Source: Eledone cirrhosa (Eukaryota). From it: 64,000 bases of DNA. The position numbers and the translations under genes are program-made. Shown one piece after another: positions 5,113 through 64,000 of the stretch. The stretch covers positions 49,848,001 to 49,912,000 of the forward strand of contig OZ024749.1 of NCBI GenBank assembly GCA_964016885.1, read 5' to 3'. Under the pieces are notes generated by a model that saw only the letters and a list, made by a program, of their open reading frames with translations, had not been told where the DNA came from and ran no database searches. Position 1 is the first letter of the stretch; each line of letters begins with the position of its first letter.

Positions 5113-5494
5113 CCATCTAGTTCCGCAGATGAGGGTCACCGCTGCTTCCTCAGGAAGATCGATTTTAAAGTTTGAATTCTCTATCTACTTATGGCTTTTT
5201 ACTGTCATAATATTTTCCTATCAAATATATACCATCCGTATATATATTTATATGTACATTTCTTTTTCTTTGCTTCAATTCTGTTTTATATCCGCTTTTG
5301 TGGGTCGACAATGTTAAGTGTGGCATTTTAAAAATATTGTTATGTTTGTTTTTTTTATTTGTTGTTTTCAGATTCGTGTCCCCAATATATATATGCACAT
5401 TTATATTTTCATCTCTTGATATGAAAACGTTGTATTTATTTTCGATTTTAAGTAGCTCTTGATTTAAATACACGACGTCCAACATTACATCCAT
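5113..5494 (-). mobile_element. Penelope-like element 3' remnant (degenerate GIY-YIG plus decayed hammerhead)
   Basis: ORF 5189..5494 has VVY...HIYIGDT...H. Downstream is CTGAGGA-AGCAG..CTGC-GGAA-CTAG (5113-5156, minus). Confidence 0.6.
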
Positions 5495-5556
5495 ATTGTA
5501 TACATTTATATTTTATATCGGCCTGCATACACTCTTACACAAACACGCACACACAA

Positions 5557-5624
<68 letters not shown>

Positions 5625-5630
<6 letters not shown>

Positions 5631-6290
5631 AGTTCCCATACTAACTGTAAAACTAGAAATGTTAGATATAGCATAAGATGTACTGAAGGACAATGTAGAG
5701 ATAAGAAAATACTGTACATAGGTGGAACAGCTCGTAGTATAGGGGAACGGATAAATGAACACCGGTGAGAGATTCAACATAGTAAAGAATCATCTGTACT
5801 CCACCAACATCTAAAATAGAAGATAAGGGTAAATTAGAGAACATAGAAATAAAAATAGAATCTACACACAGAAAAGACGCAATGTTTAGAGAAATCACAG
5901 AGGTAATAATGATAAATGAACTCCAACCAAAATTAAATAGAAAACATGAATGGAATAGCAACATCACAACTTACAATTAAGGACAAAATGAAAAGAACAC
6001 ACACACATAGAACAAACAACCAACCAGTAACATGTAAATAAACAAATAAATAAACAAATATAAACACACACAGACAGCCGGATGTAACACATGCGCAAAC
6101 TAAGCACACAACAAAAACAAGATGGCGTAGGAGAGAACATAGGAGAGGCACAAAAGCAAAGAAAAGAAGCCGCAATCACTGAAGAGGTCACATAATGTGT
6201 GACTGACGAAAGAACTTTGACAATATATGAACAATCGTTTGGTTGTGGAACCAACCAACCGGAAATTTATAAATTCCTAAATTTATAAAT
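5625..6290 (+). mobile_element. Penelope-like element 3' end (GIY-YIG endonuclease pseudogene plus pLTR)
   Basis: Translates as CKTRNVRYSIRC..C..LYIGGTARSIGERINEHR, then after disruption E.I.INELQPKLNRKHE, followed by an A-rich UTR and a hammerhead core. Confidence 0.85.
6176..6220 (+). ncRNA. Minimal type I hammerhead ribozyme motif (PLE-associated)
   Basis: TCA-CTGAAGA-G GTCACA taatg TGTGAC tgaC-GAAA-GAAC-TT-TGA. Stem I is TCA/TGA and stem II is a 6-bp hairpin. Confidence 0.7.
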
Positions 6291-16007: not shown

Positions 16008-18393
16008 GACAAAATACAAAACTTTTGGATAAATGCCTTCACAGAGTCTCATGAGCTGTTAGGCCCAACTTTACAATGAAATAGTTAAGGAGCCAGAAAA
16101 GATACCATCATGGCTAGTTAACGGCATTACATTCCTGCTTCCGAAGAATGATGAGACAAACAATCACAAAAATTACAGACCGATAACTTGCTTGACCACA
16201 ATGTATAAAATGTTAACATCAGTCCTAACTGAATACACATATGACAATGACAATGATAACAAATGACCTATTTCCCATTGAGCAGAAAGGGTGTAAACCA
16301 GGCTCATATGGCTGTAAGGATCAGCTTCTGGTTAACAAAATGATACTGGAAGATTGTCATAATAGACACACAAATCTATCGATTGCTTGGATAGATTATA
16401 AAAAAGCATTCGATAGTTTGCCACACAGTTGGATTGAAAAATGTTTAGAGATTTTCAAAATATCCCCCGTTGTCAGGAGGTTTTTGTCATTCAGTATGAA
16501 GACATGGAAAACGACACTCCTTTTGAATAGTGAAACAAAATCATTGGAAGCTGGAGAAGTTAATATTAATTGTGGAATGTTTCAGGGTGACTCTTTATCA
16601 CCGCTTTTATTCTGCATCGCACTTATACCATTAAGTAAAATGCTCAATGAAACAAAACATGGATATAAAGTCTATGACAAAACCATTAATCACCTGTTCT
16701 ACATGGATGACCTGAAACTATTTGCCAAAAATGATGAACAATTGCAAGGGCTATTATCCACTGTGAAGCAGTTCAGTGATGACATTAAAATGGAGTTTGG
16801 ACTATATAAATGCGCCAAAGCAACGTTCACCAGAGGAAAGCTGCTGAGGAGTTCAGACATTAATCTTGATTGGGGGAACGTGATAAGAGAACTTGATCAA
16901 GAAAAAACTTACAAATATCTAGGTGTTTGTGAAGGAGACGGAATCAAGCACTCGACAATGAGGGAAAGGATAAGTAAGGAATGTTACCGCAGAGTAAGAG
17001 CAATCGTAAGAACGGAATTGAATGCAAGGAATAGGATCGATGCCATAAACACGCTTGCCATACCAGTAGTAACCTACAGTTACCATGTCATCAACTGGTC
17101 AAGCACAGAGATCCGTAGGCTCGATACAAAAATTCGAAAATTCTTAACCATACACAGAATGCATCACCCTAAGGCAGATATAGATAGAATATATCTCCCT
17201 AGGAAAGAAGGAGGACGTGGGTTAATCCAGTTAGACATTGCGTTGAAAACTGCGACAATTGGATTATCTACATATGTAAGGGAATCACACGTTTGGATGA
17301 TCAAACTCGTTTTAAAACACGAAAGCATCAAAAGATCATATTCCATTACAAAAGATGCGCAAAGATACAGTAATGGACTCACATTTCAGAAGTCCCATTT
17401 ACTGCTGAAATGGAAAACACAGAAAAAGCAAAGCAGGTAAAAGTAACTGCAAAGAAAGAACTGCTACAGAAACTGGCTAAGACATGGCAAGAAAAGCTCT
17501 GTATGGAAAATACCCAGAGCGAGCTAACAATCCTGATGTTGACAAAACTTTAACCCATCAGTGGTTGGCATCCTCTGGACTGAAATCGGAGACTGAAGGA
17601 CTGATTATAACAGCACAAGATCAGTGTCTGCCAACAAAAAATTACCAAGCCAACATAATAAAAAAATGGATGCAGCCCATTATGCCGTGTATGCAAAAAA
17701 CAACCAGAGACTATTGACCATATAATTTCAATGTGCAGTCCTATAGCTCCAACCGAATACCTAAGCAGGCATGACAGAGCTGCACAATACATACATTGGA
17801 TAATGTGTAAGCATTTTGACCTGCCCCATCAAAAGAATTGGTGGGAGCATCAACCACCTCCCATACTTGAAAAAGATCACATCTCAATCCTGTGGAACTT
17901 TAGCATCCAAACAGACCGAAAAATAGATGCAAATAGACCTGATATAATATTGAAAAACTTTAAAAAGAGGGTATGCCTGCTAATTGATATGTCTGTTCCA
18001 ATAGACAAGAATGTATCTATAAAAACATTTGAAAAATTGAGCAAGTATAAGGACCTGGAGATAGAAATTGGAAAAATGTGGAAATTGAGAACTAAAACAA
18101 TACCAGTGGTTGTAGGCGCTCTGGGAATGATACCTAAGGGGTCTATTGATTACTTATCGCAAATCCCAGGAAACCCGCGTATAGGAGAACTACAAAAGAT
18201 AGTACTAATGGGAACTGCCCATATACTAAGGAAGATTCTGTCAATATAAGTACATCACATGTCTAAACACTAAAGATGCATGTGTGAGTATGTATGTTCT
18301 TTCTTGAACATGGCGGACCTTGTTGTCTCTTGAGGTCACTGGTTGTGACTTGGTGATAACTCGTATGAACATAAAGCAAGATAAATGCAACTG
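16008..18393 (+). mobile_element. 5'-truncated R4/Dong-clade non-LTR retrotransposon, family A (RT plus restriction-like endonuclease, frameshifted)
   Basis: RT motifs [50 protein letters not shown] motifs RHD, RPDI, LIDMSVP, K.SKY.DL, PVVVGALG. Split across ORFs 16241-17440, 17484-17717 and 17731-18249; (AAT)n on both sides. Confidence 0.93.
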
Positions 18394-27711: not shown

Positions 27712-28735
27712 TCTTTGCTTAAAATTTAATCTGTTATTTTAATAAATATTTGCTCTACGGTTCTTATATATTTGATATATATTTTCCTTATCGAGCCCTC
27801 TTTGGATTTTAGTCTTCAATTTTATTATTATTACTATTTGGCTCCTTCGGTTGAGCACTCTACTGACTTATATTCATCATGCAGAAACAACATCTGAATA
27901 TTTCTACAAAGAACATACCCGTACCAAACAGGAAAACATACCTAAAACTACTGATACAGAAAACAGACGCGTTCATTAAAAGGTTGCGTTGGCGTGCCTT
28001 TTATTTCGATAATCCGCGAAAAGCAGACAACAATGTACACAAGCATACACAAACACACATATTTATATGTGCGTGGTTTTGTATACCTATGGTAAGGTTT
28101 TGCGAATGCTTGTGTATGTACGTATCTGTTTGCGTGTATGTATTTATTTGTTTCTATTACTTCTGTATTGTATTTATTTACTTTGTTCTTAACTTTGTAG
28201 CGGAGATTCATTTGGTCTACTAGTTAGAATTTTAGTCTACAACTTCTGCTTTACATTTTACGTGGTTTTGTCTTTGCGTGCTATTGTTCTCCACACTCCA
28301 CATATGACGTATTATCTTCGTTTTTTTCGTTCATCGCCAGAGAACGTCTCTATGCAGCACCTAAGAGAACATTAGTCTACGACCTCTATTATACCATAAA
28401 CGTGGTTCTGTCTTTGCGCGTAATTGTTTTTCACCGCTCCTAATAATGACGTATTATTAGTTTTTTCCGGTTCTTAGCCAGCGAACGTTTCCACGAACCA
28501 AAGTATCGTCTTCCTGTCTTCCTCCGGTTGCAACGTTTTTTGAAATATCCAGTTCTGCGTTTACAGATTGACTTTGTTAGTTTCAGAAGATCCCGTTAAG
28601 GGTGAAAGCAGCGATTCTTTGCTTAAACTTTAATCTGTTATTTTAATAAATATTTGCTCTACGGTTCTTATATATTTGATATATATTTTCCTTATCGAGC
28701 ACTCTTTGGATTTTAGCCTTCAATTTTATTATTAT

Positions 28736-28742
<7 letters not shown>
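27712..28742 (+). mobile_element. Internally deleted Penelope-like element, family P1 (pLTR - ORF start - 3' UTR - pLTR)
   Basis: Direct terminal repeat 27712-27838 / 28616-28742. ORF 27879 begins KNIPVPNRKTYLKLLIQKTDAFIKRLRWRAFYF, resembling PLE ORF N-termini. A ~140-bp diverged internal tandem repeat and a hammerhead-like core (28584-28607) are present. Confidence 0.75.
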
Positions 28743-33852: not shown

Positions 33853-34445
33853 ATAGTAATAATAATAAAATTGAAGACTAAAATCCAAAGAGGCCTCGAT
33901 AAGGAAAATATATATCAAATATATAAGAACCGTAGAGCAAATATTTATTAAAATAACATATTAAAGTTTAAGCAAAGAATCGCTGCTTTCATCCTTAAGG
34001 GGATCTTCTGAAACTAACAAAGTCAATCTGTAAACGCAGAACTGGATATTTCAAGAAACGTTGCAACCGGAGGAAGACAGGAAGACGATACTTTGGTTCG
34101 TGGTAACGCTCGCTGGCAAAGAACGGGAAAAAACGAATAATACGTCATTAATAGGAGCGGTGAAAAACAATTACGCGCAAAGACAGAACCACGTTTATGG
34201 TATAAAAGAGGTCGTAGACTAATGTTCTCTTAGGTGGTGCATAGAGACGTTCTCTGGCAATGAACGAAAAAACGAAGATAATAAGTCAAATGTGGAGCGT
34301 GGAGAACACTAGCACGCACAGACAAAATCACGTAAATGGTAAGCAGAAGTCGTAGACTAAAATTCTAACTAGTAGACCAAATGAATCTCCGCTACAGAGT
34401 TAAGAACAAAGTAAATAAATACAATACAGAAGTAATAGAAACAAA
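33853..34445 (-). mobile_element. PLE family P1 3' UTR/pLTR copy
   Basis: Reverse complement of 28147-28742. Confidence 0.85.
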
Positions 34446-34575
34446 ACCTCGACGTTACCCTCAATTTATTGAATGGGTTGTATTACCCGTATAGAAAGCC
34501 GAATGATACGCTTAATTACATAAGTAAGCATTCCAACCATCCTGCCAGCATAACCAAGAACCTGGTAAGGAACGT

Positions 34576-34907
34576 TTCGTTTTTTCGTTCATTGCCAGAG
34601 AACGTCTCTATGCACCACCTAAGAGAACATTAGTCTACGACCTCTTTTATACCATAAACGTGGTTCTGTCTTTGAGCGTAATTGTTTTTCACCGCTCCTA
34701 TTAATGACGTATTATTCGTTTTTTCCCGTTCTTTGTCAGCGAACGTTACCACGAACCAAAGTATCGTCTTCCTGTCTTCCTCCGGTTGCAACGTTTTTTG
34801 AAATATCCAGTTCTGCGTTTACAGATTGACTTTGTTAGTTTCAGAAGATCCCGTTAAGGGTGAAAGCAGCGATTCTTTGCTTAAACTTTAATCTGTTATT
34901 TTAATAA
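34576..34907 (+). mobile_element. PLE family P1 partial copy, inverted relative to 33853-34445
   Basis: Matches 28317-28650. Confidence 0.85.
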
Positions 34908-35756
34908 CTATATATGTATATATATATACATATATATATATGTGTGTGTGTGAGGGTGTGTATGTCAATTGGTATGCAACACAATATGCACATATATATA
35001 TATATCCTCAATTAACTGTTAACTGTATTTTAGTTGTTATCCATGTGATGTGGCATTTGCATATATGCCAAATACACGTTGGAATTGTATGTAACTACAT
35101 GCTTTGTATATATATGGAAATTGTGTGTAAATGTACGTGTTCATATATGTTTGAGTAACTCAACATTTTATATACGGTTAAACGTACGCAATCTTGCATT
35201 CCAATACATTAATTTGCCTAACGCTCTCAATTAATGGAATTATATATTATAAATAATAGAGAAAGCGTATGCAATCTATTAGTTAATTACGTAACATTAC
35301 TAGACTCTTTGTAATAATAATTACATTATAATTCTTGATATTCGCAAATATTTCACTTAAAATATGGAATTTAAATGATTAGTAAATTACATCATACGTT
35401 TCCATCTCTCTAGTTATCCCTATTTCAATATCTGATCACATAACTAACTACACGGAGACATAATGTGTTAATAACAGAGTAAACCAATTTTTATAATTTG
35501 TAAGCGTAAACAACAATATTTATTATAGAAAAATATATTTTAATGATATATATTCAGTTAATTTGTTGGAACTTGTAAAAATATTGATGCATATATAATT
35601 TCCAATTTAAAATTTTTCATATTTCCAAATCATAAGACAGATCATATATAATATCTAGTCGATTATGTATTTGTAGAAGCTAATCTATGAACATCTGGTG
35701 GCCTTTGTGTCTCACTTTTTCTCACTCGCTCTGCTTATATATATATATATATATAT

Positions 35757-36100
<344 letters not shown>

Positions 36101-36221
36101 GAATATATATAGTGTATTTTGAGCACCGATTCTAATTTTGAATTGTTGCTGGACCGACAACCGCTCTGTATAATCAGTTCCTGATTATTACTGCAATTCT
36201 ATCAAAATCCAACATTCATAA

Positions 36222-36311
36222 TTTTCAGCAGGCAAAGGGAGTTCTAAGCTGTGAGGAGTACCAACAGTACGAAACAGATCTGCCAGCTTATCTCCCTTTG
36301 TTTTCTGAAAA
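36222..36311 (+). ncRNA. Extended type I hammerhead ribozyme fold with variant core
   Basis: Stem I TTTTCAG.AGGCAAAGGGAG-ttc-TAAGCT / AGCTTA-t-CTCCCTTTGTTT.CTGAAAA; core GTGAGGA; stem II GTAC-caaca-GTAC; GAAA; stem III CAG-at-CTG; site GCC. Confidence 0.8.
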
Positions 36312-36464
36312 AAGAAGTAAGTGACATAGTCCCTACTTCGAAACGATAGCGTAAGGTTTTCAAAATGATTTTAATTAAGCATACGATGTATTGCAAAATA
36401 CACTATATATACATTCATATATATAACACTATCTCAGACACCATTTTTAATATATATATATATT

Positions 36465-36530
36465 TGAAGATCCCGTTAAGGGTGAAAGCAGCGATTCTTT
36501 GCTTAAACTTCAATCTGTTATTTTAATAAA
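36465..36530 (+). mobile_element. PLE family P1 pLTR fragment
   Basis: GAAGATCCCGTTAAGGGTGAAAGCAGCGATTCTTTGCTTAAACTT matches the P1 pLTR. Confidence 0.8.
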
Positions 36531-36656
36531 AATATATATATATATATTGACAAAGTGAAACGTTACGTTTTAATCATTTTCTGACCCATAACAAAGAGAG
36601 AGAGAAACAAAAAAATACATTTTTTTTTTCTTCCTAATAATCCTCTTTTTCCCTAT

Positions 36657-37206: not shown

Positions 37207-37957
37207 TACCAAGCCAACATAATAAAAAATGGATGCAGCCCATTATACCGTGTATGTAAAAAATAACCAGAGACCATTGACCATATCATTTCAATGTGCA
37301 GTTCTATAGCTACAACCGAATACCTAAACAGGCATGACAGAGCTGCACAATACATACATTGGATAATGTGTAAGCATTTTGACCAGCCCCATCAAAAGAA
37401 TTGGTGGGAGCATCAACCACCTCCCATATTTGAAAAAGATTACATCTCAATCTTGTGGAACTTTGGAATCCAAACAGACCGAAAAATAGATGCAAGTAGA
37501 CCTGATATAATATTGAAGCACTTTAAAAAGAGGGCATGCCTGCTAATTGATATGTCCGTTCCAATAGACAAAAATGTATCTATAAAAACATTTGAAAAAT
37601 TGAGCAAGTATAAGGACCTGGAGATAGAAATTGGAAAAATGTGGAAATTGAGAACTAAAACAATACCAGTGGTTGTAGGCGCTCTAGTAATGATACCTAA
37701 GGGGTCTAATGGTTACTTATCGCAAATCCCAGGAAACCCGCGTACAGGAGAAATACAAAAGATAGTACTAATGGGAACTACCCATACACTAAGGAAGATT
37801 CTGTCAATATAAGTACATCACAAGTCTAAACACCTAAAGATGCATGTGTGAGTATGTATGTTCTTTCTTGAATATGGCGGACCTTGTTGTTTCTTGAGGT
37901 CACTGGTTGTGACTTGGTGATAACTCGTATGAACATGAAGCAAGATAAAGGCAGCTG
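37204..37957 (+). mobile_element. R4/Dong-type LINE family A, 5'-truncated copy (RLE domain plus 3' UTR)
   Basis: ORF 37294-37812 is nearly identical to 17731-18249; (AAT)n flanks. Confidence 0.92.
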
Positions 37958-38164: not shown

Positions 38165-38830
38165 GTAGAATGCATATATATACATGAGAGAGTTGGCCAA
38201 TATCTACACTGGGTAATATGTCGGCAATACAAAATTCAAAGCTGGAGACATGTGGTACAATCATCTCCCCCCAGGCTGTAACTGAAGGAGAAAAAGTAAC
38301 AATTCTCTGGGACTTTCCTGTATACACTGACAGGACCATAAAGTTAAATACACCTGACATCTTTATAAAATATCAACATAACAAGGTATGCTTGTTGATA
38401 GATATGAGCATCCCATGTGATCACAATATCGCGGCAAAAGAATTGGACAAGCTACGAAAGTATAAACGTCTGCTTATTGAAATTGAGAAAATGTGGCACC
38501 TCAAGGCCGTTACAATATCAGTGATTGTGGGAGGACTGGGAATGATCAAGAAAGGAACAGAACAATATTTCCGAATGATTCCTGGTTTACCCTCTCTGTA
38601 CCAGGTGCACAAAATTGTTTTGACTGGTACTGCACACGTATTGAGAAGAGCACTATCCTTGTATTTACATATGCATATGCACATATGTATATATGTATAT
38701 TTTTTTCTTTTTGTTATTATAATGAATGTGCTGTATTAAGTGGCTTACCAATGCACACTGTAAATTTATTTTCCCTAGGTGTCAGGAAGACACACAGCAT
38801 ATATCTCAGAAACAATAATGAAAGAAAATA
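38165..38830 (+). mobile_element. R4/Dong-type LINE family C 3' fragment
   Basis: ORF 38218-38739: ILWDFPVYTD..PDI..LIDMSIP..K.RKY..L.IEIEKMW..VIVGGLG..LTGTAHVLRRAL. Confidence 0.88.
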
Positions 38831-40006: not shown

Positions 40007-40124
40007 ATAATAAATGTGAAGACTAAAATCCAAAGAAGGCTCGATAAGGATAAGTATATATCAGTTTTAGAAGATCCCGTTAAGAGTGAAATCACCGATT
40101 CTTTGCTTAAACGTTAATCTGTTA

Positions 40125-40131
<7 letters not shown>
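40006..40131. mobile_element. Two short PLE family P1 pLTR pieces in opposite orientation
   Basis: 40006-40062 matches the minus-strand pLTR end; 40063-40131 matches the plus-strand pLTR. Confidence 0.7.
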
Positions 40132-40155
<24 letters not shown>

Positions 40156-51962: not shown

Positions 51963-52027
<65 letters not shown>

Positions 52028-52029
52028 TT

Positions 52030-52390
52030 ATTAAAATAACAGATTAAAGTTTAAGCAAAGAATCGCTGCTTTCACCCTTAACGGGACTTCTGAAACTAAC
52101 AAAGTCAATCTGTAAACGCAGAACTGGATATTTCAAAAATCGATGCAACCGGAGGAAGACAGGAAGACGATACTTTGGTTCGTGGTAACGTTCGCTATGC
52201 AAATAAGTAAAGGAATAAACAAAACATATCATAGGTTTTAAATCCAAATTTATCCTGTTTGTTGTCTGCTTTTCGCGGATTATCGAAATATAAGGCACGC
52301 CAACGCAACCTTTTAATGAACCCGTCTGTTTTCTGTATCAGGAGTTTTAGGTATGTTTTCCTGCTTGGTACGGATATGTTCTTTGTAGAA
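52030..52390 (-). mobile_element. PLE family P1, second internally deleted copy
   Basis: ORF start TKNISVPSRKTYLKLLIQKTDGFIKRLRWRALYFDNPRKADNKQDKFGFKT joined almost directly to the 3' UTR/pLTR. Confidence 0.8.
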
Positions 52391-56206: not shown

Positions 56207-56262
56207 ACTGCCTGATGAGGTAATAGCCATTCAATGGCTATCATCGAAATATATATAGCAGT
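56207..56262 (+). ncRNA. Intact minimal type I hammerhead ribozyme
   Basis: ACTGC-CTGATGA-GGTaATAGCCAT tca ATGGCTATcATC-GAAA-TATATA-TA-GCAGT, then AATAAA. Confidence 0.88.
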
Positions 56263-62504: not shown

Positions 62505-64000
62505 CTGTGGTGAGAGTGAACGGTCACCTTTCGGAACGGTTGAACATCATGCGCTAGGTCCGCCAATGATGTGCCGTCTCGTCCCTCTTGTACGTATTGA
62601 CTCTCGAGCCATTACTGCACAGACTGGAGACGTTTGAGGGGGTCCCACGTGAACTAGGATGCCGAAGATTCGTGTCAGCAAATGCGAACGATGTCACAGT
62701 AGTAGTGTCGAACGCCAAACACATCGAGGCGATCGGCACCACACTAAGAGAATACGAATCGGTGACAGGAGAAAAGCTCAACCGAGAAAAGTCGGTGGGC
62801 CTGCAGCTCGGCACCTGAGGAGGCAGATGCATGCCGTCCAACAGCGTCGTCGGGCGCTGGACGGACGGACCGGTTAAATTGGTAGGGGTCTGGTTCGGTC
62901 CAGACTTCCAGACGGACAAAATCTGGGAGTAGGTGACGAGCAGGATCGCTTCTCTCACTCAGAAATGGACAGCGAGGAAGCTATCACTGAAAGGTCGAGC
63001 GGAGGTGGCGAATTCGTACTAGGCGTCCGTCATCTACTAGCGCCTGACCGACGTGCCTTGTTCTAAGCCTCGCCTGACAGCACTAGAGCTTTGCTCTTTC
63101 ACCTTTTGTGGAAGGAACGCGCTCCGATGGTCTGGTGGTTCATCTGCTGTGAACACACGTGGAGGGCTAGCCATGCCGTGGCTGATGATGCGCAGACACG
63201 CGCTCGGGCTACGACATCTCCACATCTTCCTCAACGGTGATCAGGTGTGGTCGCCGTTTGCTAGACGCGTCTTTCCCCAGCTCGTCTCATTGACGGAGCT
63301 GCAGTCCTGGGTCAAGCGAAGACCGATCCTGGAATGTCTTCACGCGCTCACGGCCCTCGACCAGTCGTGCAATGTGATCGGTGGAAACTCCACCTTGGCG
63401 TTCTATAGAGGATTAGTGGAGGGGAAAAGTGACGAAGTACGTGGGGAAACTCTAGGCGTCGACGAAAATCAACTAGCCAATCTCTTCGGAAGAACTTTCG
63501 GGCCGGGGCCTATGGACAATTTCCAGAAATACCTGGCCTGGCAGTGCTACCGAGGAGCTTTGCTAGTTCCGGATAAACTCTACAGGCACGGAAGTGCCTT
63601 CAGCCAGGCATGTCCGAGATGCGCGCAGGACGACGAAACCGTCCTGCACGCACTCGTTCAGAGTCCGAGCATTGCTGACTTGTGGGTTTATGTCGAACAT
63701 CTGCTGTCGCGTGTAGGACGGATCTAGCTATCAGCTGAGTCCATCGTGAGGATTGCCCGCCCTCTTCCTTTAGCCGGGAAGGGCAGGCAGTTTGTATCTG
63801 TGTTTTTATCAGGCCATGGCGAAAGAGATAGTATGGTGGACACGTTTGAAAGGGCTGCAGACGAGCACTTACCTCATCGGTGATGCCCTGATTAACTTTT
63901 TCAAATTTCATTTGAAAAGGAAAATCAGGGTAAAGAGGGGAGTGCTCTCTTCCCAGCATTTTGTTGTAATATGGGTGAGAGAAGCAAGAATGGCCCGAGT
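62505..64000 (+). pseudogene. Degenerate Tx1/L1-clade LINE ORF2 (RT C-terminal half plus zinc-finger region), running off the window
   Basis: LYVLTLEPLL, SANANDVTV (decayed YADD), GEKLNREKS, KLSLKGRAEV, RGGLAMP, CPRCAQDDETVLHAL; several stops and frameshifts; GC-rich relative to flanks. Confidence 0.85.

Follow-up and report, generated by a model that had tools for sequence, protein, structure and literature searches.

The window, the whole stretch of 64,000 nucleotides of Eledone cirrhosa DNA that was analysed, contains at 36222-36311 an RNA motif with the fold of an extended type I hammerhead ribozyme. The motif lies in a repeat unit between runs of TA, next to a remnant of a Penelope-like element (PLE).

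35915..36099, no strand: (TA)n microsatellite upstream, read from the sequence
36087..36121, minus strand: inverted piece from the 3' end of the unit, truncated 5' (unit positions 277-311)
36121..~36449, plus strand: full ~322-nt retrozyme monomer (subfamily A1), continuing a short way into a following unit
36222..36311, plus strand: extended type I hammerhead fold with a damaged core; would-be cleavage after 36284
36222-36250 / 36285-36311: stem I, 6 bp, TTC/T loop and 20 bp
36251-36257, plus strand: core positions 3-9, GTGAGGA (GUGAGGA); C3-G8 in the A1 family
36251, 36283 and 36284: G3, C16.1 and C17
36258-36270: stem II, GTAC-CAACA-GTAC
36271-36274: GAAA
36275-36282, plus strand: palindromic stem III, CAGATCTG, from paralog comparison
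36450..36463, no strand: (TA)n run following the unit, read from the sequence
36466..36533, plus strand: separate neighbouring insertion, the 3' portion of a pseudo-LTR that belongs to a young 713-aa PLE family

The fold and its position, proposed in an earlier note on this DNA, were borne out by the sequence and by two calculations. The RNA of 36222-36311 folds with a z-score of -5.04, and none of 200 shuffled sequences folded equally well. A strict hammerhead descriptor matched this single site in the window and nothing in 25 shuffled windows. Three helices surround the core and stem I is open-ended, as in type I hammerheads, with stem III present only as a palindrome. Stem I of the window copy includes G-U pairs and a single C.U mismatch at 36229/36304. 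The Infernal-type check that the note had suggested gave no hammerhead call: Rfam yielded no match at gathering score across the window, and none of the 26 hits around the motif at E ≤ 10 belonged to a hammerhead family, the hits being repeat-driven noise. In a monomer model of the window RNA, stems I and II were formed and the pair probability of stem III was 0.00. The penalty for the hammerhead fold (5.9 against 0.5 kcal/mol) is partly due to the dimer-type stem III and was therefore not taken as proof of damage. The window copy scored 127.8 bits against our model R1, a circular value since this copy is part of the R1 training alignment.

The type I core is described as C3 U4 G5 A6 N7 G8 A9, G12 A13 A14, an A15.1-U16.1 pair and H17 (PMC3088659). 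The window copy departs from it at exactly the two bases named in the earlier note, G3 and C16.1, while 69 of 92 distinct A1 paralogs have the canonical core. G3 is uncompensated because G8 is retained. In hammerheads, a severe effect is to be expected when the 3-8 pair is lost. Changes at 16.1 reportedly lower activity at least tenfold, without abolishing it (PMC3088659; NHH rule, PMC3884650). Judged from its sequence, the window hammerhead is likely to be catalytically inactive.

A search of the animal's own genome (3.0 Gb) gave 50 matches from the best 40 of 1641 candidates, and the full-length ones among them were 91–94% identical over the query, many in inverted pairs. The motif had been called solitary and without a second copy; this holds for strict-descriptor sites in the window and fails genome-wide, where paralogs are many. 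It is part of a non-coding repeat of ~322 nt (~320 bases), designated subfamily A1, found in hundreds of genomic places. With the full natural unit as the query, the ~322-nt monomer was found head to tail, and in most cases part of its 3' end came before it. Copies of the family occur as dispersed monomers, as head-to-tail dimers and trimers (spacing of units 318 at locus L056) and as 5'-inverted pieces. The natural unit (318 nt) has a GC content of 0.34 (34%), its longest ATG frame encodes 28 aa, and as a circle it folds with a z-score of about -6 relative to 40 shuffles. These values lie within those of non-LTR retrozymes (unit of ~200–400 nt, GC below 45%, non-coding), and the head-to-tail units with a type I hammerhead that mark this class are present in the dimers and trimers and in the arrays of a sister family, B. 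Unit size, GC content and tandem copies thus agree with the suggestion that the extended type I hammerhead is of the non-LTR retrozyme kind. An active retrozyme locus is not what the window holds, however, as it has just one unit, whose core is broken. Family copies were also seen at regular spacing, four times at ~44 kb (G000:C2:338330045-338463206, L059-L062) and three times at ~2.5–2.9 kb (G000:C26, L222); both are likely local segmental duplications.

The order of elements at the window locus is (TA)n, inverted piece, one direct unit with its short extension, and (TA)n. The inverted arms are at 36090-36121 and 36394-36425, homology to paralogs extends from ~36090 to ~36463, and the upstream microsatellite is likely the insertion target. 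The absence of PLE flanks stated earlier is contradicted by the inverted 3' piece, by the TA runs on both sides and by the pseudo-LTR remnant at 36466-36533, although this last piece is not homologous to the retrozyme unit. Across the family, an inverted piece of at least 40 nt accompanied 43 of 68 called sites, several of the 68 being short TA-rich matches only. TA was scored at 124 of 150 unit ends, in an interval that overlapped the TA-rich end of the unit and without a background control. The sequence directly before 91 unit starts was scored as the 3' end of the unit itself in 83 cases. Of the remaining eight, judged by eye, four are diverged own ends, three are inverted family pieces and one is a microsatellite, and foreign shared sequence was not seen at any of the 91. 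An inverted 5'-truncated copy, a partial tandem and a one-sided tail are all present, and partial tandems, inverted 5' copies and one-sided tails make up the published anatomy of PLE insertions (PMC8557442).

The core of the window copy was compared with the 92 A1 copies and with 188 distinct copies drawn from all the A subfamilies, chosen by best score or exact pattern, so that the sample leans to intact copies. Position 3 in A1 is C in 88 of 92 copies, T in two and G in two; G8 is found in 87 and U16.1 in 90. The combination of G3 and C16.1 was absent from all 188 other A-subfamily copies. Exact 20-mers gave 91 sites with C3 genome-wide and three with G3, including the window. The two non-window G3 copies retain U16.1, adjoin a C3 sibling and have almost none of the other changes of the window copy. 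One other site with C16.1 (contig C27) keeps C3 and has the short stem III in common with the window, and the two copies could derive from a shared, already damaged template. In three other DNA sequencing runs, whose reads represent copies of the family and not the window locus itself, the base corresponding to 36251 was C in 165/165, 148/149 and 121/125 reads, and that corresponding to 36283 was T in 359/364, 335/340 and 281/287.

Compared with the commonest letters of A1, the window copy has changes in 19 of 305 columns (6.2%; 36121-36425), spread along the unit. The median divergence in A1 is 3.6%, and 13 of 89 copies have diverged at least as much as the window copy. The ribozyme accounts for four of the 19 substitutions: G3 and C16.1 in the core, and in stem I the loop base 36243 and the pair at 36304. 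The earlier picture of intact helices with changes concentrated in the core is therefore not upheld, since 36243 and 36304 are mutated, 15 changes lie outside the ribozyme, and two changes in 11 core positions are no excess (binomial P 0.147, Fisher p 0.144). Among the 92 A1 copies, 69 have no core change, 15 have one and eight have two, and the decay rate per site, taken over 40 A1 copies, is 0.039 in the core and 0.036 at unpaired non-core sites. Since most other copies have an intact catalytic core, the two odd core bases of the window are likely ordinary private mutations. The possibility raised at the outset of an ordinary dead copy among many randomly decaying paralogs with canonical cores is what the genome presents, and the case shows that paralogs are the first thing to consult when a hammerhead stands alone and has odd core bases.

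The family comprises subfamilies A1, A2, A3 and A4 and sister family B, in which the sequences of the stems differ and pairing is retained. Three of them bear on the core and on stem III.

Subfamily A3 (L154-L177, L104, L109, L116, L203): compensated U3-A8 core in 34/34 copies examined
Subfamily A4 (L204-L213, L220-L228): CUGAUGA core, U.U-closed stem II, stem III CAGATCTG, ~94 exact pattern sites
Sister family B (L064 2100-3046, L121, L104, many contigs): 310-312-nt (311) units, canonical core, palindromic CGCG stem III

The palindromic stem III of the window copy, taken in the earlier note as part of the fold, is a real natural design, having 101 exact sites; 16.1 is U in 97, A in one and C in two of the 100 listed. 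Palindromic stems III are known as the dimer-type design (PMC4209133). A private 2-nt deletion had been considered as the origin of the palindrome, and it is refuted by these 101 sites, the form belonging to subfamily A4. Most of the sites are in this sister subfamily, where all 21 copies examined have the short form. In A1, stem III is 2 bases longer and has a tetraloop in 83 of 92 copies, and the other nine are 2 nt shorter. Counted against each subfamily, the window copy has 19 differences from A1, 33 from A4, 44 from A3 and 55 from A2, and was assigned to A1 since 19 differences are fewer than the 33 from A4. The window locus has no partner unit for its palindromic stem III.

Covariation was analysed in 43 rows (12 each from A1, A2 and A3, six from B and the window copy), taken from a set of 152. 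Paired letters occupied 95.1% of the cells, compared with 36–51% in slid controls. Two-sided change was found in 11 of 25 pairs, a count no higher than that of 196 of 500 shuffles; there were 114 two-sided cells against 38 in the shuffles, none of the 500 being as high, with the reservation that the shuffle ignores kinship and there are essentially four subfamilies. The 3-8 pair is CG in 29 and UA in 12 of the 43 rows. Compensatory change is thus found among homologs in the helices and in the 3-8 pair, U3-A8 being a compensated core variant known from nature (PMC3088659; PMC4209133). The covariation proposed as a check is accordingly present in the helices across the sister subfamilies, and it is missing for G3/G8 of the window. 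From the helix covariation across subfamilies and U3-A8 in 34/34 copies, selection as read from these sequences has acted on the family and not on the window copy. The subfamilies of one lineage switch stem III between the monomer type (tetraloop) and the dimer type (palindromic), and switch the core between C3-G8 and U3-A8.

Taken together, the window motif is very probably an ordinary decayed insertion, namely a dead monomer of a ~322-nt non-LTR retrozyme family that accumulated neutral mutations after insertion. The family itself, by analogy, is likely mobilised by PLEs. From the insertion anatomy and published work on the retrozyme class, we infer a scheme in which tandem loci would be transcribed and successive hammerheads would excise unit-length RNA, which would be circularised after cleavage. 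The PLE reverse transcriptase/GIY-YIG endonuclease would then prime at (TA)n and copy around the circle, leaving inserts of one and a bit, two or more units, often with an inverted 5'-truncated piece. Intact copies would, by the same analogy, undergo cleavage and yield circular RNA. No unit release is possible from the window locus since it has a single ribozyme; in addition, G3 would break the 3-8 pair without compensation, with C16.1 the A15.1-U16.1 pair would be lost, and stem III, being a palindrome, would require a neighbouring partner that is absent. The relic of an undescribed retrozyme family, one of the options in the earlier note, is the one supported by the repeat family and its dead A1 monomer. 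A description of the family was not found in the literature on hammerheads, PLEs, retrozymes and cephalopods, with Repbase, supplements and most subscription papers outside the scope; it is likely a retrozyme family for which no earlier description was found, within the known non-LTR retrozyme class. The family extends non-LTR retrozymes to the genome of Eledone cirrhosa, and its PLE-like insertion anatomy bears on which enzyme mobilises animal retrozymes.

The traits shared with PLEs, namely inverted 5' pieces, partial tandems, a tail and a TA context (PMC8557442), would be expected also if the repeat were a dead solo pseudo-LTR or the 5'-truncated end of an autonomous PLE instead of a self-standing retrozyme family, and retrozymes of Xenopus are reported to resemble pseudo-LTRs (bioRxiv 10.64898/2026.07.22.740005). 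We consider this origin improbable. The unit's own 3' end precedes 83 of 91 unit starts and the other eight show no foreign sequence, family B forms pure arrays of 310–312-nt units, with up to 16 units among the matches listed, and six full-length PLE loci have terminal repeats without homology to the unit. Two other readings, both offered in the earlier note, are less probable still. That the host keeps a domesticated or deliberately silenced fold for structure or regulation might be argued from the stable long hairpin (z -5.04) and the mostly intact stems I and II; however, ~6% of random divergence alone leaves helices standing, stem I and the loop are mutated as well, and the core is not enriched for changes. 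The copy number also speaks against it, the motif being a high-copy repeat and not low-copy, and none of the 125 window ORFs of at least 55 aa, a length above that of short exons, has a host-gene domain at curated Pfam score, where only reverse-transcriptase-related families matched. We regard such domestication as very improbable.

A natural and still active core variant, defined by G3 with C16.1, is to be expected just as little. Natural core variants do exist (PMC3088659), the superfamily itself has U3-A8, and the effect of 16.1 changes is, as given above, a lowering of activity (PMC3088659), but G3 stands opposite G8 and not C8, and its combination with C16.1 is unique among the 188 copies. 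Moreover, a variant that had spread would be expected to mark a subfamily of its own, as U3-A8 marks A3. Silencing, domestication and core variation are thus all countered by the three G3 sites against 91 with C3, by the uncompensated G3 and by a core that is no denser in changes.

The ordinary dead retrozyme monomer has close counterparts. The metazoan non-LTR retrozymes of coral, mussel and axolotl, as described in PMC7229834, likewise have units of ~300 nt with low GC (34% here), a type I hammerhead in each unit, copies both in tandem and as monomers, families with tetraloop and with palindromic stem III, and a U.U-closed stem II in some subfamilies. Against them, the window copy stands alone as one unit, its core is broken, and it is known here from DNA; the inverted arrangements frequent in the present family have no counterpart by name in the main text of PMC7229834, in which the word "inverted" does not occur. 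Partial tandems, inverted 5'-truncated copies, a one-sided tail and a microsatellite context are shared with the PLE pseudo-LTR hammerheads treated in PMC4209133 and PMC8557442, and the U3-A8 core of A3 with the Cercyon PLEs of Schistosoma (PMC4209133). Unlike PLE pseudo-LTRs, the retrozyme unit has no RT/GIY-YIG ORF, and in contrast to the minimal PLE hammerhead its ribozyme is a canonical extended hammerhead, in which proximal stem I has 6 bp and stem II has 4 bp. In vertebrates, dispersed solo monomers similar to the present ones are regarded as offspring of active multimers that probably do not transpose themselves, with a proposed dependence on PLEs (bioRxiv 10.64898/2026.07.22.740005). 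The vertebrate retrozymes of the same preprint match known pseudo-LTRs, whereas no homologous PLE was found for the present family. As to other extended type I folds, the window copy differs in being a broken-core member of a high-copy repeat. The conserved intronic hammerheads of amniotes, which have the same fold, are low-copy, conserved across species and catalytically intact.

A driver element was sought at several levels. A 17-mer common to the subfamilies has 24,477 exact sites, and at 20 of them no partner element was found other than chance neighbours. A tblastn search over the collected loci also gave chance neighbours and no autonomous element sharing family sequence, and in a sample of loci no RT and GIY-YIG ORF was flanked by the unit, as it would be in an autonomous PLE with its pseudo-LTRs. 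The six full-length PLE loci carry their own terminal repeats without homology to retrozyme units. In family B the units are 99–100% identical across many contigs and form same-direction arrays, mostly adjoined by an oppositely oriented array. Family B is very young and, judged from these sequences, likely recently or still active, and its arrays fit a rolling PLE-copying mechanism well. A doubtful but more specific proposal is that the superfamily is still active, that its inserts arise by rolling-circle PLE reverse transcription, and that the young 713-aa PLE, which has a fixed U4A hammerhead, is the driver. If this were true, the 713-aa PLE and the superfamily would be an enzyme and its substrate, both known by name, with which the movement of animal retrozymes could be tested.

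The 713-aa PLE, which may be Neptune-like, is a young family whose frame is intact in many copies, and it and its pseudo-LTR motif lie at the following positions.

28554-28658 (+), 33936-34040 (-), 34812-34911 (+), 52024-52122 (-): pseudo-LTR U4A hammerhead-shaped motif in the window
36466-36533, 40063-40137: truncated copies of the U4A motif in the window
L198 1920-2024 and 5377-5475: U4A motif at the locus with the intact frame
L198 2137-4275: intact 713-aa PLE frame
27712-28741, 33853-34911, 52024-52390: fragments of the 713-aa PLE in the window

By eye, the frame contains RT, cysteine linker and GIY-YIG-like motifs, and Pfam gave no match for it at E ≤ 0.1. The U4A motif has the core CAGAAGA, a 5-bp stem I with a distal helix, a U.U-closed stem II and a 5-bp stem III. 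Position 4 is A in 36 of the 37 copies that cover it and U in none, and in 869 kb examined a descriptor with A4 matched this PLE family only, those with C4 or G4 giving no match. No variant at this base was found among the best-supported 40 of 70 rows, in runs with more than 5,000 reads each. A report of a U4A hammerhead core was not found in the literature, again with Repbase, supplements and most subscription papers outside the scope. As far as its sequence goes, the U4A pseudo-LTR motif may be more likely to represent a natural core variant than the motif at 36222-36311.

Seven further PLE-type hammerhead motifs were seen in the window, at 56212 (+), 57501 (+), 58203 (+), 58110 (-), 57408 (-), 45812 (-) and 20322 (-). 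They have a long stem II and a palindromic TATATA/TATGTA stem III, with a canonical core in six of the seven, and include two inverted pairs in a ~700-bp local duplication. Fragments of non-LTR retrotransposons lie at 16229-18249, 37267-37812, 38188-38739, 62570-63727 and 5463-5768, with Pfam matches to RVT_1 at 16229-17437 and zf-RVT at 63041-63724; restriction-like endonuclease ends and one GIY-YIG-like end were recognized by eye among them.
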